This document shows, piece after piece, positions 3 through 42,528 of a stretch of 64,000 bases of DNA. Positions within the stretch are counted from its first letter, which is position 1; each line of letters begins with the position of its first letter. This DNA is from an uncultured bacterium. Its GTDB lineage: Bacteria; Electryoneota; Tariuqbacteria; Tariuqbacterales; Tariuqbacteraceae. The stretch spans positions 8,747 through 72,746 of the forward strand of contig CAYQZD010000002.1 of NCBI GenBank assembly GCA_964421875.1. Reading direction: 5' to 3'. The notes beneath the pieces are model-generated. The model ran no database searches, was not told where the DNA came from, and was given only the letters and a program-made list of their open reading frames with translations. The position numbers were made by a program, and so were the translations under genes.

Positions 3-791
3 AGTGTTACCATCTGCACTAACGGCTGGGTCTCCTTCGTATCGACCTGGATGGCTGATTTTCGGAATTGGGATTTGCCTTCTCCGCTGGGTCCGCCCAC
101 GCTTATCGCCGCTTTCTGGGACGATTTAAAGGACATATACGATGACACTCTGGACATGTTTTACTGGTATGACAGCCCCGGACATCGTTTCATTGTGGAG
201 TGGAGCCGGGTGCAGAACCGTTTCACAGGTGTAGCTAATCGGGAGGAGACTTTTGAGTTGATTCTGTACGATCCTCAATACCGTTCAGGTCCTACCGGAG
301 ACGGGGATATCCTTATCCAGTTCAAAGTGGTCAACGATATCGATGAAGATAACAACTACTGCACCGTCGGCGTGGAGGATTATGAACATATGCGGGGATT
401 GGAATATGTTTACGGTTTGATATATCCGCCCACATCCGCCACTCTGCGCAATGAGATGGCGATATTAATCACCACCACACCGCCGGATAATTATTTAGGG
501 GTGGAAGAGCAGCCGGGGACTGCTGTTTATCGTTTTTCCCTGTCTCAGAACTATCCCAATCCCTTCAACGCCTCGACAGTCGCGAGCTTCGAGCTGCGGG
601 ATGCGAGTGATGTCAAGCTGATAGTGTATGATATCAGCGGGCGAGAGATTGCCCGGCTGGTGGACGGCTGGCTTCCCGCCGGGGCGCATCAGGCGGTATG
701 GGACGCGTCTGGAGCGGCGTCAGGGGTGTATTTCGCGCGGCTCAGCGCCGGGGATGCGCATCTGACAGAAAAACTTCTGTTAATTAAGTGA
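3..791 (+). CDS. Secreted protein carrying a T9SS (Por) C-terminal sorting domain; 5'-partial, the reading frame is open to the window edge
   Basis: No stop in frame from position 3. The C-terminal ~80 aa (YPNPFNASTVASFELRDASDVKLIVYDISGREIA...GVYFARLSAGD...LLLIK) matches the T9SS CTD pattern. Gene 788..2248 (also T9SS cargo) follows with an ATGA overlap. Confidence 0.7.
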   Translation, partial: SVTICTNGWVSFVSTWMADFRNWDLPSPLGPPTLIAAFWDDLKDIYDDTLDMFYWYDSPGHRFIVEWSRVQNRFTGVANREETFELILYDPQYRSGPTGDGDILIQFKVVNDIDEDNNYCTVGVEDYEHMRGLEYVYGLIYPPTSATLRNEMAILITTTPPDNYLGVEEQPGTAVYRFSLSQNYPNPFNASTVASFELRDASDVKLIVYDISGREIARLVDGWLPAGAHQAVWDASGAASGVYFARLSAGDAHLTEKLLLIK

Positions 792-2248
792 TGAGAAAAC
801 CGGTCATACTTATAGCAATCGTGTTTTTATCATTGTCCGCCTTTGGTCAGTACGGGCGGTGGGCGGAGCCGGTTAATATCTCCAATTCGCCGGGAGGCTC
901 TTACGATCCGGACATGGCGATTGGACCCGACGGGAAAATTCATGTGGTTTATGAAGATTGGACGCGGCTTAATAATTTCAATTACCGGGATATAATGTAT
1001 GTCGTTTTCGACAGTTACGAATGGCGGGAGCCGGTGCAGATTTCGGAATACGACACTACCTATGCGGCTGACCCACGAATAGCGGTCGATTCTCAAGGCA
1101 AGCCTCATGTGGTATGGTATGACCGTTTCTTATTTTACGATTCCGATATTTTATACGCCACCTTGACCGATTCCGGCTGGACGGAACCGCTCAGTCTAAC
1201 GGAGTTCAGCCCAGCATCTTTGGTGCCTGATATTGTTATCGACAGCCGCGACTATGTGCATATTGTCTGGGATGATTATTATTACGGCCGCGCGCAAATA
1301 TTCCACATATATTTTAACGGCAACAGTTGGTCTAATTTCGTTAATGTTTCCAATGACCCTATCGATTGTTGTTTTCCTCGAATAACGGTTGATTCAAATG
1401 ACAGCCTGCATATTGTTTGGCGGCAGATGACCGGCGGCGGATACGACAGTGAGATATTTTACTCAATGTATAACGGCGTTTCCTGGCGGCCGGGGATAAA
1501 TATTTCCTTTAGCGGGACATTGCAATCGCTCAGCCCTCAGGTTGAGGTCGACCGCTATAACAATCCTCATGTGATTTGGACCCAATCGCAATACAGCGGA
1601 TTCAAAGAGATAATCTATACATATTTCAACGGAGAATATTGGTCTCAACCGGACAGTCTTACCAATTTGGGAGTAAATTCAACTTATCCGAGTTTCGCAA
1701 TCTCCCGCGAAAGTATAAGATGCTTTATATTCAGCGCGCGGAGGCAGAGTTATAGTCCCTATATTTGTTATTCATTCAGGAGGGATTTGAGTTGGACCTG
1801 GCCTTTACCGATTTTCTATGATTATTTAGGCACTAAATCCGCAATCGCTATTGATACTTATGATGTCATTCATACTTGTTTATTACTATCTGATAACGAT
1901 TACGGAGAAATAATGTACACATATTATATACCTGATAATTCAATTAGCAGTCAAGCAGATGGACGCCCATCCTACTGTATTTATTTGAATAATCATCCCA
2001 ACCCATTTAATCAATCGACATCGATAAATTTCAACGTAAATATTGATTCACCAGTGAATCTTTCAGTTTATAATATCAGAGGGGAATTGGTAAAGGCTTT
2101 AAAAGAAGGAATCTTGTCAAGAGGAGATTATTCTGTAATCTGGGAGGGCGATAATTCATTGGGAACAGAGGTGGGTGGCGGGATTTATTTTGTTAGGCTA
2201 CAGGTAGATGGGGAATCGTATTTTAAGAAGTTGATTCTCCTGAAGTAA
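788..2248 (+). CDS. Secreted repeat protein (about five ~45-aa repeats with a P.HVVW/HIVW/HVIW core, possibly propeller-like) with a T9SS C-terminal sorting domain
   Basis: N-terminal signal peptide MMRKPVILIAIVFLSLSAFGQ. Repeated motifs DGKIHVVYEDW, QGKPHVVWYD, DYVHIVWDD, DSLHIVWRQ, NNPHVIWTQ. C-terminal NHPNPFNQSTSINF...VYNIRGELV...GIYFVRL...KKLILLK matches the T9SS CTD. Confidence 0.7.
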   Translation: MMRKPVILIAIVFLSLSAFGQYGRWAEPVNISNSPGGSYDPDMAIGPDGKIHVVYEDWTRLNNFNYRDIMYVVFDSYEWREPVQISEYDTTYAADPRIAVDSQGKPHVVWYDRFLFYDSDILYATLTDSGWTEPLSLTEFSPASLVPDIVIDSRDYVHIVWDDYYYGRAQIFHIYFNGNSWSNFVNVSNDPIDCCFPRITVDSNDSLHIVWRQMTGGGYDSEIFYSMYNGVSWRPGINISFSGTLQSLSPQVEVDRYNNPHVIWTQSQYSGFKEIIYTYFNGEYWSQPDSLTNLGVNSTYPSFAISRESIRCFIFSARRQSYSPYICYSFRRDLSWTWPLPIFYDYLGTKSAIAIDTYDVIHTCLLLSDNDYGEIMYTYYIPDNSISSQADGRPSYCIYLNNHPNPFNQSTSINFNVNIDSPVNLSVYNIRGELVKALKEGILSRGDYSVIWEGDNSLGTEVGGGIYFVRLQVDGESYFKKLILLK

Positions 2249-2619: not shown

Positions 2620-4125
2620 ATGGTCAATGTTGCAGAGTTGCTGGAGAATAATCGGCAGGAAAATGGTAGCAAGGAAGCGTTGGTATGGGGGAATTCACGC
2701 GTGAGCTATGATGAATTGTTTGATGCTGTGCTCAGGCTGGGCGCAGGATTGAAACAGCGAGGTATAGAGAAGGGCGACAGAGTGTTGCTGATGCTGCCTA
2801 ATATTCCTCATTTTCCCATCGCATATTATGCGATTCTTTCCATAGGCGCCGTTGTGGTGCCGGCCAATATAATGTTCAAAGAGCGCGAGATCGCTTATCA
2901 GGTAGAAGATTCCGAGGCGATAGCCGCCGTGGGCTGGGAAGGATTCGCGGAGGATTTGAAACGTGCTCAGGAACTGACGGAATCTCTGAAGCATCTGATT
3001 GTGCTGGGCGACCGGATACCCCCGGAGGCGGATTCACTCACCAGAATGATAGGTGAGAATAAACCGCTTGACGGTTTCGAGAAACTTGATTCTCAAGATT
3101 CCGCGGTGATATTATATACTGCGGGTGTGACCGGTCATCCCAAGGGCGCGGAATTGTCCCATGGGGCGATGATGCACGGGATGAGGGTTCTGTCGGAGAC
3201 TTTGCGTTTCACCGACCGGGAGCGGATTATGGCCGTAGTGCCTTTCTTCCACTCTTTCGGCGGCGGTGTGGTAATGAATGCGGGTCTTTTCGGTGGAGCT
3301 ACTCTGGTGCTTTCTCCCAAGTTCAATCCCCAGGAAGCTCTGGAGATGATTGCAGGAGAAAAGGTGACCGTCTTCGCCGGTGTGCCCACGATGTTTCAAT
3401 ATCTTTTCAACCGTGACAATACCTCGGAATACGACCTGTCAAGTTTGAAGTATTGTCTTTCCGGGGGGAGCGCCCTTTCGGAGGAATTACTGAAAAGGTT
3501 CGAAGAGAAGTTCAACACCTATGTTCTCGAAGGCTACGGGTTATCCGAGACCTGCGCCGCAGCCTGTTTTAACAACTTTAAGCGAGAGCGTAAACCCGGC
3601 TCGATAGGTTACCCTTTGGACGGGGTGGAGATGCGGATTCTCGACGACGATGACAAGGAAGTTGCCATTGGCGAAATCGGCGAGATTGCCATCAAGAGCC
3701 CTACTCTGATGGCGGGATATAGAAACCGTCCCCAGGCTACTGCTGAAGCAATACGCGACGGCTGGTTCCGCACCGGCGATATTGGGCGGATGGATATGGA
3801 CGGTTACTTCTACATCGTGGACCGTAAGACCGATATGATTCTAAAGGGTGGTTTTAAAGTTTTCCCCCGCGAGATTGAAGAAGTTATAGCGGCGCATCCC
3901 CAGGTTCAGGAAGTGGCGGTTATCGCCATCAGCGACTCCATAATGGGCGAGGAAATCAAGGCTTGCGTGGTTCCCAGGGAGGGTGAGCGGATTAATCCCA
4001 AAGCTTTGATCGATTATTGCCGGGGCAGGATGGCGAATTATAAGTGCCCCGCGGTGCTGAAATTCTACCGGGAACTTCCCAAGGGCCCCACCGGACGCAT
4101 CTTGAAGAAGGAACTCAGAAGATAG
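2620..4125 (+). CDS. AMP-dependent acyl-CoA synthetase / fatty-acid--CoA ligase (ANL superfamily)
   Basis: AMP-binding motif YTAGVTGHPKGAELSH, 501 aa. The C-terminal ...GRILKKELR lysine region is typical of adenylate-forming enzymes. Confidence 0.85.
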   Translation: MVNVAELLENNRQENGSKEALVWGNSRVSYDELFDAVLRLGAGLKQRGIEKGDRVLLMLPNIPHFPIAYYAILSIGAVVVPANIMFKEREIAYQVEDSEAIAAVGWEGFAEDLKRAQELTESLKHLIVLGDRIPPEADSLTRMIGENKPLDGFEKLDSQDSAVILYTAGVTGHPKGAELSHGAMMHGMRVLSETLRFTDRERIMAVVPFFHSFGGGVVMNAGLFGGATLVLSPKFNPQEALEMIAGEKVTVFAGVPTMFQYLFNRDNTSEYDLSSLKYCLSGGSALSEELLKRFEEKFNTYVLEGYGLSETCAAACFNNFKRERKPGSIGYPLDGVEMRILDDDDKEVAIGEIGEIAIKSPTLMAGYRNRPQATAEAIRDGWFRTGDIGRMDMDGYFYIVDRKTDMILKGGFKVFPREIEEVIAAHPQVQEVAVIAISDSIMGEEIKACVVPREGERINPKALIDYCRGRMANYKCPAVLKFYRELPKGPTGRILKKELRR

Positions 4126-4183: not shown

Positions 4184-5308
4184 ATGATTTTCACCGAATT
4201 AGCGTTGGGATCCTTAACGCTGCCCAATCGGCTGGCTCGTTCCGCCACCGCTGAAAGAGGGGCGGATGAAAAGGGCAGAGTATCGAAGAGTATGGCGCAG
4301 ATGTATGAGTCCCTGGCTCGCGGCGGAGTGGGATTGATAATGACGGGGCACGCTTATGTCAGGGCGGACGGAAAAACCAATCCTGCGCAGACCGGGATTC
4401 ATACCGACCGGACCATTCCCGGTTTGGCGATGACGGTTAGGGCGGTTCACCGCAATTCCGACGCTAAGATTTTCCTGCAGATGAGCCACGCCGGCCGCGC
4501 CGCCTCGGAGAAACTGATTGGCTCCAAGCCCGTCGCGCCCAGTGCGGTTCCGGTGCGGATGTCAGGGGAGCAGCCTCGGGAAATGTCGGGTGACGAAGTG
4601 TCGGAGCTGATCGAGTTATACGCGATTGCGGCTTTGCGCGCCCGGGAAGCCGGGTTCGACGGCGTCCAACTCCACTGCGCTCACGGCTATTTAATTTCGC
4701 AGTTTCTCTCCCCCTATACCAACAAGCGGGAGGATGAATGGGGCGGTTCGCCACAGAACCGTCGGAGATTCCTCCTGCTGATTACGGAGGAAATTACGCG
4801 GCAGGCGCCGGATTTACCCTTGACGGTTAAAATCAACTGCGACGATTTACTGCCGGGCGGAATTACTCTTGAAGAGTTCACCGAAACCTGCAGGTTGCTG
4901 GAGGGGGCGGGAGTAATAGCTTTCGAGGTTTCCGGCGGCATACCTGAAACCGCGGGCAGGATAATCAAAAAAGGGGTCGATTCTCCGGAGAAGGAAGGAT
5001 ATTTCCTTTACGGCGCCAAAGCCCTGAAAGAGGCTGGGATATTATCCACCATTCTCACTGTGGGAGGTTTTCGCACTCTTCCGGTATGCCGGGGAGCCGT
5101 TTCCCGCGGCGATACGGACATAGTTTCGCTTTGCAGACCCTTGATAACGGAACCGGATCTTCCCCTGAAATGGCGCAGAGGGGAGGCGTCGGGGAGCCGT
5201 TGTATTTCCTGCAACCGCTGTTTGAGGCTGCGCCGGGGGATGACGCACTGCGTTTACTGGGAAGAACAGACGGATAAAGACGGTGGCGGAGGTAATAGTA
5301 TAATTTAG
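4184..5308 (+). CDS. Old-yellow-enzyme family NADH:flavin oxidoreductase (2,4-dienoyl-CoA reductase-like FMN/Fe-S domain)
   Basis: HCAHGYLISQFLSPYTNKREDEWGGSPQNRRRF catalytic region. C-terminal CISCNRC...C four-Cys motif as in FadH-type enzymes. Sits next to the acyl-CoA ligase. Confidence 0.7.
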   Translation: MIFTELALGSLTLPNRLARSATAERGADEKGRVSKSMAQMYESLARGGVGLIMTGHAYVRADGKTNPAQTGIHTDRTIPGLAMTVRAVHRNSDAKIFLQMSHAGRAASEKLIGSKPVAPSAVPVRMSGEQPREMSGDEVSELIELYAIAALRAREAGFDGVQLHCAHGYLISQFLSPYTNKREDEWGGSPQNRRRFLLLITEEITRQAPDLPLTVKINCDDLLPGGITLEEFTETCRLLEGAGVIAFEVSGGIPETAGRIIKKGVDSPEKEGYFLYGAKALKEAGILSTILTVGGFRTLPVCRGAVSRGDTDIVSLCRPLITEPDLPLKWRRGEASGSRCISCNRCLRLRRGMTHCVYWEEQTDKDGGGGNSII

Positions 5309-5361: not shown

Positions 5362-6390
5362 ATGAATATAGGCATATTGACAGGGGGGGGCGATTGCCCC
5401 GGATTGAATGCGGTTATCCGCGCTGTGGTCCGGCGCTCTCGGATAACCTATAATTGGGATGTCATCGGTATCAGAAACGGATGGAAGGGATTGATAGAGG
5501 GGGAAGTGGTTCCTTTGACGATGTATGCCGTTTCCGGTATCCTGCATCGGGGCGGCACTATTTTGGGCACTTCCAGGAAGAATCCCACCAAGTCAGCGGA
5601 AGACATTGAAAAGGTTCGGGACAATATGAACCGATACGGCATAGACTCTCTGCTGGTGGTTGGAGGGGATGACACCCTTTCCGCCGGGCTTGATTTTCAC
5701 CGGCAGGGCATACCAGTGGTGGGTGTGCCCAAGACTATCGACAACGATATCGAAGGGACGGATTTTACCTTTGGATTCAACACTGCGGTCACCATAGTCA
5801 CCGAAGCCATCGACCGTCTGCACACCACTGCGGAATCGCATCACCGGATTATGGTGGTAGAGGTTATGGGTCGGCACAGCGGTTGGATTGCGGTAATGTC
5901 GGGTATCGCCGGCGGCGCCGATATGATTATTATCCCCGAAGTCCCCTATGACATCCAAGGCGTCTGCGACAAACTGAAAAAACGGCACGAAGTGAAGCGG
6001 TTCTCCATCGTGGTGGTGGCGGAGGGCGCTAAGCCGGTTAACGGCGAAAACCTAATTACTCAGGACCAGGAACTGGACGAATTTGGCAACGTCCGGCTGG
6101 GCGGGTTGGGACATATCGTCGCCAATGAGATAGAAAAAATCATCGGTATAGAAACCCGGGTCACCATCCTAGGGCATATTCAACGGGGCGGGAGCCCTAC
6201 CGCCTATGACCGGATTTTAGCTACTCGCTTCGGAGTCGCCGCCGTCGATGCGTTGAAACGGAAGGAATATGGTAAGATGGTGGCGCTGCGGTCGGAAAAG
6301 ATTATCACTGTCCCGTTGGAAGACGCGGTTTTGGAGAATAAGAAGGTGGATATGGAGCTTTACGATATCGCCGAGATATTTTTTGGCTGA
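5362..6390 (+). CDS. pfk: 6-phosphofructokinase, probably pyrophosphate-dependent
   Basis: MNIGILTGGGDCPGLNAVIRAVV N-terminus. GGDDT in place of the ATP-PFK GGDGS, and PKTIDNDI in place of PGTIDNDI; Asp and Lys at these positions are characteristic of PPi-PFKs. Confidence 0.85.
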   Translation: MNIGILTGGGDCPGLNAVIRAVVRRSRITYNWDVIGIRNGWKGLIEGEVVPLTMYAVSGILHRGGTILGTSRKNPTKSAEDIEKVRDNMNRYGIDSLLVVGGDDTLSAGLDFHRQGIPVVGVPKTIDNDIEGTDFTFGFNTAVTIVTEAIDRLHTTAESHHRIMVVEVMGRHSGWIAVMSGIAGGADMIIIPEVPYDIQGVCDKLKKRHEVKRFSIVVVAEGAKPVNGENLITQDQELDEFGNVRLGGLGHIVANEIEKIIGIETRVTILGHIQRGGSPTAYDRILATRFGVAAVDALKRKEYGKMVALRSEKIITVPLEDAVLENKKVDMELYDIAEIFFG

Positions 6391-6408: not shown

Positions 6409-6804
6409 TTGCAGGTTATAATGTCGAGAAGGCATCACGATTGGATGGCGCAGGCCGAGGCTGATTTTAAGCACGCCGTTAATTCCAAGGAATGGGGCGA
6501 TTACGAATGGGCTTGCTTTGCGTCTCAGCAGGCGGCGGAAAAAGCGATAAAAGCCTTGATTGAGAGCAGAAATGGGAAAGCGATTGGTCACTCATTGAAA
6601 AAGTTACTCCAGCTTATTAATGTTGACGATAAGAATCTTATCGAAGCAGCTATAAGACTGGATAAACATTACATTCCCGCCCGATATCCTAATAGTTTCG
6701 ATTCCGGCGCTCCCAGTGATTATTATACTATCAAAGATGCTGAACAAGCGGTAATAGATGCGGAATCGATAATAAGGTATTGCCAAGACAATTTAGCAGG
6801 TTAA
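6409..6804 (+). CDS. HEPN-domain protein (putative toxin of a HEPN/MNT pair)
   Basis: ...QQAAEKAIKALI...RLDKHYIPARYP matches the HEPN domain pattern with an R-x(3-6)-H-like motif. Its stop overlaps the start of the nucleotidyltransferase gene. Confidence 0.7.
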   Translation: MQVIMSRRHHDWMAQAEADFKHAVNSKEWGDYEWACFASQQAAEKAIKALIESRNGKAIGHSLKKLLQLINVDDKNLIEAAIRLDKHYIPARYPNSFDSGAPSDYYTIKDAEQAVIDAESIIRYCQDNLAG

Positions 6805-7140
6805 ATGTCTTCGGAAACATATATTGAGTATCTTCGTAAAGAAGATGTAATCCCCATTGTTAAAGACGCCGCCGAGAAGATAAAAAAACTGCCTAATGTC
6901 TTGCGCATCGGATATTTTGGCTCCTTTGTCCGCAACGACCAGATTCCCGGTTCGGACATCGACATCTTCATCGAATTGGCGGATGATGACCGCAGATGGT
7001 TCGACCGGGCGGGGGATTTCATAGAATATTTTGATAAAGTCCCCTGCGTGGTGGAAATCTTCGCTTTTACCCGGCAGGAGATGTCGAATAAGGATAATAA
7101 GTTCTATCAAGAGGTTTTGCAGGAATTGGTTGAATTGTAA
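6805..7140 (+). CDS. Minimal nucleotidyltransferase (MNT) domain protein (putative antitoxin partner)
   Basis: GYFGSFVRNDQIPGSDIDIFIEL is the GS-x(n)-D-x-D Pol-beta-type NTase motif. 111 aa, directly follows the HEPN gene. Confidence 0.75.
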   Translation: MSSETYIEYLRKEDVIPIVKDAAEKIKKLPNVLRIGYFGSFVRNDQIPGSDIDIFIELADDDRRWFDRAGDFIEYFDKVPCVVEIFAFTRQEMSNKDNKFYQEVLQELVEL

Positions 7141-8336: not shown

Positions 8337-8399
8337 TAATAATGTTTATATTCCAAGCGCCCGTTAAAATTTTCAAAGATATTCACAGGAGGAGGCGCC

Positions 8400-9413
8400 A
8401 TGCCAATCCTTTTTAAGGGCAAGGCAGGGGATTTGAAAATGTCCCCCAGCGAATTCAGCGGCGAGGATGAGTTAAAGGGAATTCTGACCCAGAATCCGGA
8501 ATTGCTGCTCGCCGACGGCGAGCCTCCGGCTGCCGTAGCGGGGGAGGGGGTCAATTTATCCAGCGCCGGCGAAACGGATTTACTGCTGGTGGATTCCGAG
8601 GGATTCCCGATGACGGTGGATGTATTGGTGAGGGGGAGCGATTTCAGCGCGTTTATCGCCTGCGCCCTTGATAACGCCTCGTCTATATCACGCTTCAACG
8701 CTAAAGAACTCGACCGAAAGCTGGAAGGGAAACTGGGAGGGGCGTTGGAGTCTTTTTATAGCAGTCTTAATGATTACTTCGCGGTGGAGCGGCGGTGGGA
8801 AGCCTGTGAGGCGTATCTTTCCCAAGGAAAAATCCGAATTATACTCGCCGTGGATGAGGTTTCCCCGGATATGATTCGCCTGGCGAAGTTTATCGGTTCC
8901 AACGCCAATTTCTTTGTCAGGTTAGTGGCAATTAGGAAGTATGAGCTTAAGCGCGGGGAAAACCTTTTGATACCGGAGATGGTGGTTCGCGGAGGGAGTG
9001 TTTCCGACTGCCCCAGGGTGAGGTTTTTGGCGGCGGCGGACGCTTATTCGATTGTCGCTTCCGGGGGATTCAAGCTGTCGGGCCAGGGTTTCGACCGGCG
9101 TGAGATTCACCCTAACGGCTGGGGGAGCGCCGTTTATTATGGATTGCGGGACAGCGGGGCGGAGGATATCAGCGTAGGGGTTTATGTGACGGAGGAGGTC
9201 AGCGGTCTTAATGAAGAACTTAGCGCGTTGGAAGGGGACATAGCCGGAGCGGTGAAATGGGGTATAACGCGCTGGAGTAACGAGGGAGAAGATGAAACCG
9301 GCAGGCTGGAAATCGCCTTCAACCAATCAACCTCTTCTATGGGAGTGGCTAAGGCTTTAAAAATATTGGTCGATATGACCAAGGAGAAGATTTCTGCGGC
9401 TTTGGGGATTTGA
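8400..9413 (+). CDS. Hypothetical protein (337 aa) inserted between gap and pgk; the N-terminal region resembles a degenerate PD-(D/E)xK / NucS-like fold
   Basis: No recognisable catalytic motif. N-terminal E..ELK.ILTQNPELL...GE.DLLLVDSEGFPMTVDVLV pattern. Co-directional and tightly packed within the gap-pgk-tpiA-secG block. Confidence 0.4.
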   Translation: MPILFKGKAGDLKMSPSEFSGEDELKGILTQNPELLLADGEPPAAVAGEGVNLSSAGETDLLLVDSEGFPMTVDVLVRGSDFSAFIACALDNASSISRFNAKELDRKLEGKLGGALESFYSSLNDYFAVERRWEACEAYLSQGKIRIILAVDEVSPDMIRLAKFIGSNANFFVRLVAIRKYELKRGENLLIPEMVVRGGSVSDCPRVRFLAAADAYSIVASGGFKLSGQGFDRREIHPNGWGSAVYYGLRDSGAEDISVGVYVTEEVSGLNEELSALEGDIAGAVKWGITRWSNEGEDETGRLEIAFNQSTSSMGVAKALKILVDMTKEKISAALGI

Positions 9414-9551
9414 AGCAGTTTATAGTTGGAGGCAGCGGTTGGTAGTAGGAAAGTTGTGGTGTGGGTTTTAACTCACCGACATGATGTCAGTGTTAAAGAG
9501 TACCATATTAGATATTTGTTCTAATTATATCCCATCGAAAAGGGGGATTTT

Positions 9552-10748
9552 ATGAATAAACTCACCATCGACGATATTGAACTTGTGGGAAAGCGGGCGC
9601 TGGTGCGGGTCGATTTCAATATTCCGTTGGATGAGAACGGCTCGATAACCGACGACCTCCGTATCCGAGCCAGTCTTCCCACTATTCGTAAGATAATCGA
9701 GTCCGGCGGGCGGGCTGTTTTAATGTCGCATATGGGCCGGCCCAAGGGTAAGGTCGTGCCTGAACTCAGGATGACGCCCGCGGCGCTGCGCTTGTCGGAG
9801 TATTTGAAGAAGGAAGTGAAGCTCGCTCCCGACTGCGTCGGCGCAGAGACATTGAATATAGCGGAAGGATTGACGGACGGCGAGGCGCTGCTGCTGGAAA
9901 ACCTCCGCTTTCACAAGGAAGAGACTGAGAACGATCCGGAATTCGCTCGGCAGCTGGCGGAATTGGGGGAGGTTTACATCAACGACGCCTTCGGCACCGC
10001 CCACCGGGCGCACGCTTCGACCGAAGGGATTACTCATTACCTTTCCCCCGCCGCAGCGGGTTACCTGATGGAGAAGGAAATTGAGTTCTTAGGGAGGGCT
10101 ATTGAGAATCCGCCTCATCCTTTTGTGGCGGTTTTAGGGGGCGCTAAGGTATCGGGCAAAGTGGAACTTATAGAACGGCTGATTGGGCGGGTGGACGCTA
10201 TTTTAGTAGGAGGGGGGATGTGCTTTACATTCCTGAAAGCCCAGGGCTTGAATGTGGGGGATTCACTGGTTGAAGAGGATTTAATTCAGACTGCTTCGGC
10301 TACACTATCCAAAGCCGCGGCTCAGGGAGCGGAGATGTCATTGCTGCAGGATGTGGTTATAGCCCGGGAGATTAGCGCTGAGACTGACGTTAAAACTGTG
10401 AGCGCAAATGAGATTGAAGCGGGATGGAAAGGTTTGGACATCGGACCGCGCACCGCTGAGTATTTCGCTGAGAGGATAGCGGGAGCGCAAACCGTGCTCT
10501 GGAACGGGCCGATGGGAGTTTTTGAAACCTCTCCCTTCGCCGGGGGAACGGAGAGGGTGGCTTTAGCGATGGCGGCGGCTACGCAGAATGGGGCGACCAC
10601 AGTTGTCGGGGGAGGGGACACTGCGGCCGCAGCCCGGAAATTCGGCGTCGATGCTAAGGTTTCGCACGTGTCCACCGGCGGCGGAGCCTCACTTGAGTTT
10701 TTAAGCGGTCTCAGCCTTCCGGGATTGGAGGCTTTGACTGATAAATAG
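9552..10748 (+). CDS. pgk: Phosphoglycerate kinase
   Basis: RVDFNIPLDENG...SHMGRPKG N-terminal motifs and GGGDTAAA C-terminal motif, 398 aa. Confidence 0.95.
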   Translation: MNKLTIDDIELVGKRALVRVDFNIPLDENGSITDDLRIRASLPTIRKIIESGGRAVLMSHMGRPKGKVVPELRMTPAALRLSEYLKKEVKLAPDCVGAETLNIAEGLTDGEALLLENLRFHKEETENDPEFARQLAELGEVYINDAFGTAHRAHASTEGITHYLSPAAAGYLMEKEIEFLGRAIENPPHPFVAVLGGAKVSGKVELIERLIGRVDAILVGGGMCFTFLKAQGLNVGDSLVEEDLIQTASATLSKAAAQGAEMSLLQDVVIAREISAETDVKTVSANEIEAGWKGLDIGPRTAEYFAERIAGAQTVLWNGPMGVFETSPFAGGTERVALAMAAATQNGATTVVGGGDTAAAARKFGVDAKVSHVSTGGGASLEFLSGLSLPGLEALTDK

Positions 10749-10814: not shown

Positions 10815-11576
10815 ATGCGCAGATATTACATCGCCGGGAACTGGAAGATGAATCCGGCGGAAAATCCACGGGATTTGCTGGATAAATTGAAGGCAAGGCT
10901 GTCGGGGATGAGTAAAATCGATCTGATGGTCGCTCCCCCTTTCACCTCGATTCCCGAAGCGGTTGAAGCGCTGCGGGGGACGGGAATAGCTGTTTCCGGG
11001 CAGAACCTGTATTGGGAGGAAAAGGGAGCTTATACCGGCGAGATTTCCGCTTCGATGCTGATAGACGCTGGCTGCTCCTGCGTTATCATCGGCCATTCCG
11101 AAAGACGCCAGTATTTTAATGAGACCGATGAAACGGTGAATCGCAAGATACGGGCGGCGCTTAAAGCCGGTTTGACTCCGGTGCTTTGTATCGGCGAGAC
11201 TGAGAAGCAACGTGAAAACGGGGAAACCTTCAAGGTGGTGGAAAAACAGCTCCGCGGCGCTCTCCGCGGCATCGATGTAGAGGCTGTCGAAGGATTTATC
11301 ATCGCTTATGAGCCGGTGTGGGCTATCGGCACCGGGAAGGTGGCTTCGCCGCAGGATGCGCAGGAGGCGCATCGCTTTATCCGGGGACTGTTGGAACAGC
11401 TATACTCCCCATCGCTGGCGGAAAAGACCAGAATTCTCTACGGCGGTTCGGTTAAACCTGATAACGCTAAGGGAATACTTAGTCAGCCGGATGTGGATGG
11501 AGCCTTGGTGGGCGGAGCGAGTCTTTCGGAGGTGTCATTTGGGGAAATTGCCGCGGCGGCAGTGTCGCTGGCTTGA
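10815..11576 (+). CDS. tpiA: Triosephosphate isomerase
   Basis: YIAGNWKMN start, IGHSERR, AYEPVWAIGTG and GGS motifs. Confidence 0.95.
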   Translation: MRRYYIAGNWKMNPAENPRDLLDKLKARLSGMSKIDLMVAPPFTSIPEAVEALRGTGIAVSGQNLYWEEKGAYTGEISASMLIDAGCSCVIIGHSERRQYFNETDETVNRKIRAALKAGLTPVLCIGETEKQRENGETFKVVEKQLRGALRGIDVEAVEGFIIAYEPVWAIGTGKVASPQDAQEAHRFIRGLLEQLYSPSLAEKTRILYGGSVKPDNAKGILSQPDVDGALVGGASLSEVSFGEIAAAAVSLA

Positions 11577-11706: not shown

Positions 11707-12105
11707 ATGATTTACGGAATTTTGTTATTAATTCACATCCTCGTCTGTCTGGCGTTGGTTTTGGTTATACTGATGCAGGCTTCCAAGGGGAAGGGACTTG
11801 CGGGAGCATTCGGAGGTGGAGGAGGGGCGGCAGCGGGATTTTTAGGAGCGCGCGGGACTGCGACCTTCCTGTCGAAGGCTACTACCTATCTGGCGATAGC
11901 CTTTATGGTGAATGCGCTCCTGTTATCACTACTGTCCCGAGGAATCGGCACTCCGAGGAGTGCGGTGCAGGATGCGATGCAGAACATGCAATCCCCCGCT
12001 CAGCAGCTCCCGGCTATACCGGGCACAGTGGGAGAATCCCCCTTGAGCGGCGAACAAACGCCTGCTCCGGCTGAGGAAAGCCCTGGGGGCGGCGAGGGGG
12101 AATAA
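11707..12105 (+). CDS. secG: Preprotein translocase subunit SecG (with a low-complexity C-terminal extension)
   Basis: Two TM helices and LMQASKGKGLAGAFGGGG typical of SecG. Canonical position after tpiA. Confidence 0.85.
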   Translation: MIYGILLLIHILVCLALVLVILMQASKGKGLAGAFGGGGGAAAGFLGARGTATFLSKATTYLAIAFMVNALLLSLLSRGIGTPRSAVQDAMQNMQSPAQQLPAIPGTVGESPLSGEQTPAPAEESPGGGEGE

Positions 12106-42190: not shown

Positions 42191-42276
42191 TTATTCGCCT
42201 GCTGTGTATTATTAATTGTCCTGAAAATAAGTCTGCAAGTCTGTAAGTCTTCAAGTATTTAAGTCAGAAAAAAATT

Positions 42277-42528
42277 GTAGGGTGGGTTCTTAACCCACCA
42301 ATTTACAAGTCATTCCGGCGCAGCCGGAATCCTTCTTCATAGGGGCGAACGGCCGTTCGCCCCTACCGGCATCCAATAACTGGGAACCACTGTGTCGCAG
42401 AGTCCCCGCACTCTGCGACATCACCGGCGGCTCCGAATAGTTTGCCCTGCAGATTGGTGTTAAGTTATGCCTTTAACGAAACGGAGACCTGACGTTTGAC
42501 TTGTTCCCACCCTCCCGCGTGGGAATGC
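42277..42528. repeat. Mosaic cluster of REP-like hairpin modules (families B, A, F, C, D', E)
   Basis: B: GTAGGGTGGGTTcttAACCCACC (42277-42299). A: gtcATTCCGGCgcaGCCGGAATcc (42309-42332). F: GGGGCGAACGGCCGTTCGCCCC (42342-42363). C: tGTCGCAGAGTccccgcACTCTGCGACa (42392-42419). D': 42463-42498. E: TTCCCACcctcccgcGTGGGAA (42502-42525). Confidence 0.8.

Follow-up and report, generated by a model that had tools for sequence, protein, structure and literature searches.

Here we analyze a 337-amino-acid (aa) open reading frame, hereafter the ORF, that lies between the glycolytic genes gap and pgk in DNA of an uncultured bacterium of the family Tariuqbacteraceae. The window, i.e. the whole stretch under study, comprises 64,000 nucleotides of contig CAYQZD010000002.1. 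The encoded protein belongs to PDC-S11, a family of single-gene phage-defence candidates, and it has lost the catalytic set that its relatives conserve. We consider it rather probable that it is a dead PDC-S11-type nuclease that was domesticated between gap and pgk and is kept for a job that is predicted not to involve cutting. The candidate defence family is known, and the ORF protein would be a domesticated and, as far as its residues tell, nuclease-dead variant of it at an unusual, conserved housekeeping locus.

Family, fold and active site of the protein

Searches of Pfam, NCBIfam and PDB sequences with the window protein gave no match even at E <= 10, and a known housekeeping family was looked for without success. 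The libraries yielded a single, weak match, to the PADLOC profile PDC-S11 (PDLC04916, E = 4.1e-5, aa 13-191). A word-indexed search of 5.8 billion proteins returned the protein itself and two relatives, P0002 (63% identity) and P0003 (46%). When 1.84 billion representatives were searched exhaustively with HMMER, 375 proteins were found at E <= 1e-3, and 136 of these at E <= 1e-10. The majority have 340-360 aa and align over their entire length with 25-35% identity. The links found by phmmer span the full length (alignments 1-335), with E-values down to 2e-47. All 50 of the 50 aligned relatives match PADLOC PDC-S11 (best 3.5e-21), and 16 of the aligned family members match Pfam NucS_C. The window protein thus shares with PDC-S11 (profiles PDLC04909-04916) the profile match, full-length homology, the two-domain layout and the length of about 340-360 aa. 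The trio formed with P0002 and P0003 is rare, with three protein clusters among the 5.8 billion, and a scan with subclade motifs found no further members in GTDB genomes or JGI metagenomes.

The AlphaFold2 model contains both domains, with a predicted local distance difference test score of 93.5. The N-terminal domain has a restriction-endonuclease-like alpha/beta core as in the PD-(D/E)xK superfamily. The original prediction had noted a loose resemblance to a NucS/PD-(D/E)xK-like scaffold without the E-x-K, and structure, profile and family alignment all bear this out, the predicted fold being NucS-like. The fold of the C-terminal domain is common to type III secretion chaperones, YbjN/AmyR and the C-terminal domain of MotA. 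The window protein does not reach the gathering score of Pfam DUF4268 (PF14088) and has no match to it at E <= 10, but the relatives P0158 (1.1e-21) and P0122 (6e-8) do match, and that region is covered by the alignment of the family profile. Judged by these alignments, the domain is DUF4268-like and not a scored member. The elements of the ORF are as follows:

8400..9413, + strand: the 337-aa ORF, ATG start; predicted nuclease-dead PDC-S11 family member (NucS_C-like plus DUF4268-like)
8400..8999, + strand: N-terminal domain, aa 1-200; its PD-(D/E)xK fold is of the NucS C-terminal type and has a helical insert around aa 100-141
8577..8675, + strand: degenerate active-site block; D60 and D91 kept, E74->D, K76->L, N80->S, Q88->C, Y92->N
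8619-8621, 8625-8627, 8661-8663 and 8673-8675: active-site codons of E74->D, K76->L, Q88->C and Y92->N, respectively
9006..9410, + strand: C-terminal domain (aa 203-337), alpha/beta platform, DUF4268-like

The family alignment displays the textbook PD-(D/E)xK signature AG.LDLLLVD..G.P..VEVKL.RN..SRREVVAQ..DY. Over 152 family sequences, the signature columns hold D in 142, E in 138, K in 136, N in 135, Q in 140, D in 135 and Y in 135. This D-E-K-N-Q-D-Y set, kept in about 90% of the family, is missing from the trio, where the residues at these columns are D-D-L-S-C-D-N in the window protein, D-N-R-G-S-K-N in P0002 and H-E-V-gap-S-N-K in P0003. An intact catalytic signature, D...E-x-K...Q..DY, is accordingly absent from the window protein. 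Since the three sites differ both from the consensus and from one another, the constraint on the dead site appears to be relaxed. Among the 36 columns conserved at >=80%, the trio keeps 4 of the 21 cells at catalytic positions but 68 of the 87 at other positions (Fisher p = 7.6e-7). The conserved basic residues of the cleft, namely K76, R79 (RN), the SRR motif and R141, are also lost in the trio, and the three proteins are acidic, with isoelectric points of 4.6-4.7 (4.7-5.5 for the C-terminal domain, compared to a family mean of 7.7). This combination of basic-residue loss and acidity puts even DNA binding in doubt. It is very likely, as judged from these residues, that the ORF protein is nuclease-dead.

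A different possibility is that the protein is a still-active nuclease with a rearranged, non-canonical active site. Some restriction enzymes use a relocated lysine, and motif variation is tolerated across the PD-(D/E)xK superfamily; moreover, the window protein still has D60 and D74. However, the catalytic columns of the trio have no acid or lysine in common (D/D/H at 60, D/N/E at 74, L/R/V at 76 and C/S/S at 88), there are no conserved substitute residues around the cleft, and the basic residues are gone too. Because a catalytically constrained site would not vary freely among orthologues, we regard an active enzyme as very unlikely.

Conservation and selection at the gap-pgk junction

The arrangement originally described, with the ORF separated from gap by 63 bp and from pgk by 138 bp, was confirmed. 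The genes and signals around it are:

5362..6390: pfk, upstream of the HEPN-MNT pair
6409..7140, + strand: HEPN-MNT toxin-antitoxin-like pair between pfk and gap (Pfam HEPN and NTP_transf_2 in contig L001)
7338..8336, + strand: gap (GAPDH), the upstream neighbour of the ORF (Gp_dh_N/C Pfam domains in syntenic loci)
8390..8395, + strand: Shine-Dalgarno sequence AGGAGG, 4 nt upstream of the ATG of the ORF
9450..9479, + strand: dispersed hairpin repeat, degenerate copy within the spacer between ORF and pgk
9552..10748, + strand: pgk, the downstream neighbour (PGK Pfam label on contig L006, which is identical to the window)
10815..11576: tpiA, after pgk (TIM Pfam label on L006)
11707..12105: secG, after tpiA (SecG Pfam label on L006)

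The synteny comparison that had been suggested shows gap immediately upstream of the ORF for all three proteins. The order in contig L008 is gap-ORF-pgk, the same as in the window, and the string in the P0002 lineage is pfk-HEPN-MNT-gap-ORF. The GAPDHs of the three ORF-bearing lineages are only 72-81% identical. In a neighbour-joining tree, calculated with a fast distance method and without bootstrap, the trio forms a single clade on a long stem, both with and without the motif block.

The same tree places three longer relatives with degenerate catalytic motifs as a sister group to the gap-linked trio, which may be explained by long-branch attraction: P0005 (581 aa, L096 7001-8746), P0016 (943 aa, L098 7001-9832) and P0008 (609 aa, L095 1252-3081). 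Their C-terminal extensions have no Pfam matches. The relatives share a conserved neighbourhood of a non-defence type, which in P0005 and P0016 has a tetratricopeptide repeat (TPR) protein, the gene itself, an SLT lytic transglycosylase, a helix-turn-helix-cupin protein and an AMP-binding protein, while the contig of P0008 is short and shows the TPR gene only.

The reading frames are intact, and no frameshifts were found in the relatives. The ratio of nonsynonymous to synonymous substitution rates (dN/dS) of the ORF is ~0.10 between window and L001 and 0.28 between window and L008, but since dS is saturated (1.7-2.7) these values are rough and of an upper-bound type. The dN of the ORF is 0.27, compared to 0.11 for gap and 0.07 for pfk, and the ORF thus evolves about 2.5 times faster than gap. 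The trio has long subclade-specific identical blocks (MPILFKGK.GDLK, LNDYFA, DAYSIVA and STSSMGVAKALK). There is little doubt in our view that the protein is under selection.

The faster evolution and the eroded catalytic site, together with the position inside an essential gene string, would also be expected of a decaying relic whose frame stays open only because a stop or a frameshift would be polar on pgk-tpiA-secG. Such polarity selection would, however, preserve an open frame and not an amino-acid sequence, and the dN/dS of 0.1-0.3, the subclade-identical blocks, the confident fold and the retention of 78% of the family's structural positions make a relic very improbable.

In composition, the ORF is native to its host. 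Its GC content at third codon positions (GC3) is 0.621, compared to 0.620 +/- 0.045 for the long ORFs of the window, and its correlation in relative synonymous codon usage (RSCU) is 0.54, compared to 0.69 +/- 0.145. The comparison with the neighbours, which had been proposed as a check, thus gave a matching composition. The AGGAGG is the same in the window, L001 and L008, against a gap-ORF spacer that has otherwise diverged. No terminator-like sites were seen on the + strand between gap, ORF and pgk. From the missing terminator, the conserved Shine-Dalgarno sequence and the spacing, we infer that the ORF is co-transcribed with gap and pgk.

To gauge how unusual the insert is, we used as background 80 diverse GTDB genome loci (GAPDH query) and 80 metagenome loci (PGK query). 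In 105 of these, gap and pgk are linked on the same strand; they lie <=400 bp apart in 96 of the 105, the median spacers being 66 and 75 bp, and 449-586 bp apart in five. Gene-sized inserts occur in the remaining four linked loci (L101, L103, L121 and L147), where the encoded proteins are unrelated to the ORF, and the family profile found no homologues of the ORF in any of the 160 background loci. The wedge between gap and pgk is uncommon, yet it has precedent, and this occupant is unique to its own lineage. The best GAPDH match in GTDB genomes has 63% identity and the best PGK match in metagenomes 61%, among the matches listed.

It is a different gene pair that separates gap from pgk in L101 (1544-3757) and L103 (2583-4956): one gene encodes a conserved protein of 412-415 aa (MQKL.TVDDY.PFIGKEAVERIKKKAEPLKNLHLVNVNSTYSGGGVAEIM...), and the other, of 252-258 aa, is variable. 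The PGKs of these two metagenome contigs, at 59-60% identity, are some of the closest to the window PGK among the matches listed. Extra genes thus recur at this junction in several lineages.

Variable cassettes and repeats around the ORF

The position of the HEPN-MNT pair is kept in the P0002 lineage (L001 7950-8645), with 80% and 77% aa identity, and the MNT protein matches PADLOC PDC-S09 (1.9e-11). The two genes are AT-rich outliers, with a GC content of 0.43-0.44, and the RSCU correlation of HEPN is r = 0.02. The P0002 lineage carries two further cassettes. A Type II methyltransferase and restriction endonuclease pair (L001 4933-6830; PADLOC 3.6e-65 and 9e-80) lies between an Oxidored_FMN gene and pfk, whereas the window lacks it and proceeds from the ORF at 4184..5308 directly to pfk. 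A HEC-01A-type AAA ATPase (PADLOC E = 2.7e-86), followed by the start of a DUF4276-like gene (L001 11054-12380, also in L002, L003 and L089), begins 42 bp after the ORF, where the window has pgk. The four longer contigs of the P0002 lineage all end inside or just after this HEC-01A cassette, which suggests that its content is strain-variable.

Contigs L001 and L089 are identical over 11,240 nt except for seven positions, all within 66 nt (10918-10983, ORF codons 306-328) in the last ~95 nt of the ORF; three of the differences are nonsynonymous (M322T, T327S and K328R). The chance of such clustering is about 5e-8. It probably marks a boundary, between strains or from recombination, next to the variable cassette, and we rejected targeted hypermutation in favour of this explanation.

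With these cassettes present in the P0002 lineage and not in the window, the operon junctions are insertion-prone, and the ORF and HEPN-MNT are their conserved residents. The family is classed as a defence candidate, but the ORF of the window and its two orthologues are found in a glycolytic gene string and not in a defence island; in the sister lineage, toxin-antitoxin, restriction-modification and HEC-01 cassettes interleave the same string.

The degenerate hairpin noted originally is indeed present in the ORF-pgk spacer, where it aligns to repeats at 42271, 48402 and 60641, which have the intact core at 42281, 48412 and 60651. As evidence for an insertion of the ORF it has no value, because the equivalent spacer of L008 lacks the copy and the ORF has a native composition. 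The hairpin is a later local arrival. The folding of the spacer is unremarkable (z = -0.32), and no Rfam families were detected anywhere in the window.

These data bear on the scenario of a recently and horizontally acquired mobile or defence gene, for which the hairpin would be an insertion scar. In its favour are the defence-candidate status of the family, the variable cassettes at the same junctions of the P0002 lineage (HEC-01A after the ORF and Type II restriction-modification before pfk) and the degenerate repeat itself. Against it, GC3 and codon usage match the host, the position is held in three lineages with GAPDHs of 72-81% identity, the L008 spacer has no hairpin, and no integrase, direct repeats or tRNA were seen flanking the ORF. 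A recent mobile insertion is thus largely refuted, and we give it hardly any weight. In the earlier suggestion of a domesticated mobile gene, the domestication is supported by the conserved synteny and the purifying selection; the ancestral family is a candidate defence nuclease and shows no sign of being a transposable element. On the whole, the original reading holds up. No paralogues of the ORF were found within the window.

Some other repeats in the window can be mentioned. Between 40000 and 63000, intergenic positions hold a dense cluster of short repeats, hairpin or palindromic, that belong to several families without Rfam match, e.g. GTTATGTCAGGTC...GACCTGACAT (6 copies), GTAGGGTGGGTTCTTAACCCACC...CCGGCGCAGCCGG (3 copies, 71 nt) and CCGCCGGGTCCCCGCACCCGGCGG (3 copies). 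They resemble repetitive extragenic palindromic (REP) or miniature inverted-repeat transposable element (MITE)-like elements. A 93-nt direct repeat with 86% identity (663-755 and 2359-2451) has its copies inside or close to two neighbouring large ORFs (788..2248 and 2620..4125), which points to coding segments that are paralogous or repeated. Sorting domains of the type IX secretion system (T9SS) are also encoded near the locus, a hint of an FCB-type lineage.

Relation to known systems and possible role

The likeness to NucS/EndoMS (PF01939; PDB 2vld) is confined to the NucS_C-like domain, which in the window protein is placed N-terminally and has about 15% identity. The window protein has neither a Pfam NucS match nor the catalytic E-x-K, it has no NucS N-terminal DNA-binding domain, and a PCNA/clamp motif was not detected in it. 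The C-terminal domain differs as well, and the protein and the mismatch-repair enzyme are not orthologues. Non-catalytic PD-(D/E)xK folds that are kept as binding modules are found in the nuclease-like domain of RecC and the N-terminal domain of RPB5. These dead folds are domains of large, well-characterized complexes, whereas the window protein stands alone.

The modification-dependent nucleases MdgA and MdgB, and the Type IV GmrSD fusions, have the same architecture of nuclease plus DUF4268-type domain. The catalytic glutamate of MdgA, E77, for which an E77A mutant is described, is close to the E74-equivalent position of the PDC-S11 family, and DUF4268 is proposed to be a substrate-recognition module (PMC12366544); the domain is also fused to GmrSD enzymes (PMC4619093). 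MdgA and MdgB are reported to lack PADLOC homology (PMC12366544). Compared here by described domain content and E77, they may be analogues only, and they have a DUF4268 of their own, while the link of the window C-terminal domain to DUF4268 runs through its relatives. For PDC-S11 itself, a correlation in haloarchaea has been described (bioRxiv 10.1101/2025.11.08.687337).

The following course of events would account for the observations. The ancestor would be a stand-alone PDC-S11 nuclease with a NucS-type PD-(D/E)xK domain and a DUF4268-like domain, a copy of which took its place between gap and pgk at an early time, within a single bacterial lineage that is poorly sampled. This copy would then have lost E-x-K, Q and DY of the catalytic site together with the majority of the basic cleft residues, and would have been inherited vertically under purifying selection within the pfk-gap-pgk-tpiA-secG string. 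The outcome would be a pseudo-enzyme, most likely unable to cut DNA, that acts by binding. Its ligand may be a protein or peptide, in keeping with the chaperone-like C-terminal domain and the acidic surface, or a nucleic acid, the ancestral target.

It is important to point out that several observations weigh against this proposal. The designation of PDC-S11 as a defence nuclease is a candidate label of computational origin, and no experiment on its members was found in the accessible literature. The subclade consists of three sequences only, and no insert-free sister genome was found among the GAPDH and PGK matches listed, so that only indirect deductions can be made on when and in which direction the insertion took place. 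The dN/dS values are rough, as stated above, the retained D60 and D74 could still bind metal, and for co-transcription we relied on terminator absence and spacing.

As to the role of the protein, a tie to the neighbouring defence or toxin-antitoxin cassettes is conceivable, although we would not expect it, and a role in glycolysis or its regulation is less likely than that. One specific form of the latter is a dedicated glycolysis factor, e.g. a regulator of the gap operon that binds DNA and is functionally analogous to CggR, or a protein that partners GAPDH or PGK. The strictly conserved place after gap, the strong and conserved Shine-Dalgarno sequence and a C-terminal fold common to regulators and peptide binders (YbjN/AmyR, MotA C-terminal domain, type III secretion chaperones) speak for this. 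On the other hand, there is no homology to known regulators, the acidic protein and the loss of the conserved basic cleft residues argue against DNA binding, in the P0002 lineage a defence cassette separates the ORF from anything further downstream, and position alone is a weak indicator. We therefore consider a dedicated factor improbable.

That a defence-type nuclease has been exapted as a pseudo-enzyme, co-expressed with core glycolysis genes and with a new cellular role, is also an unlikely proposition at present. The protein may in such a case act as a non-cutting sensor or adaptor that links HEPN-MNT or the variable defence cassettes to the metabolic state, as a decoy or dominant-negative of intact paralogues, or as a regulator of the gap operon. 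If the exaptation is true, P0005, P0008 and P0016, the apparent and partly degenerate sister group fixed at another housekeeping-like locus, would mark a wider, unrecognized clade of domesticated PDC-S11-like proteins.

The practical value of the finding is modest, because the lineage is rare and the protein has no assigned function. The ORF is nevertheless a clean and well-supported case of a candidate immune nuclease that, judged by its residues, has lost catalysis and is still selected within an essential string of metabolic genes. Were a real role to be established, the protein would be an example of defence genes being recycled into host physiology, and also a natural separation-of-function variant of the PDC-S11/DUF4268 architecture, in which binding is kept and cleavage lost.
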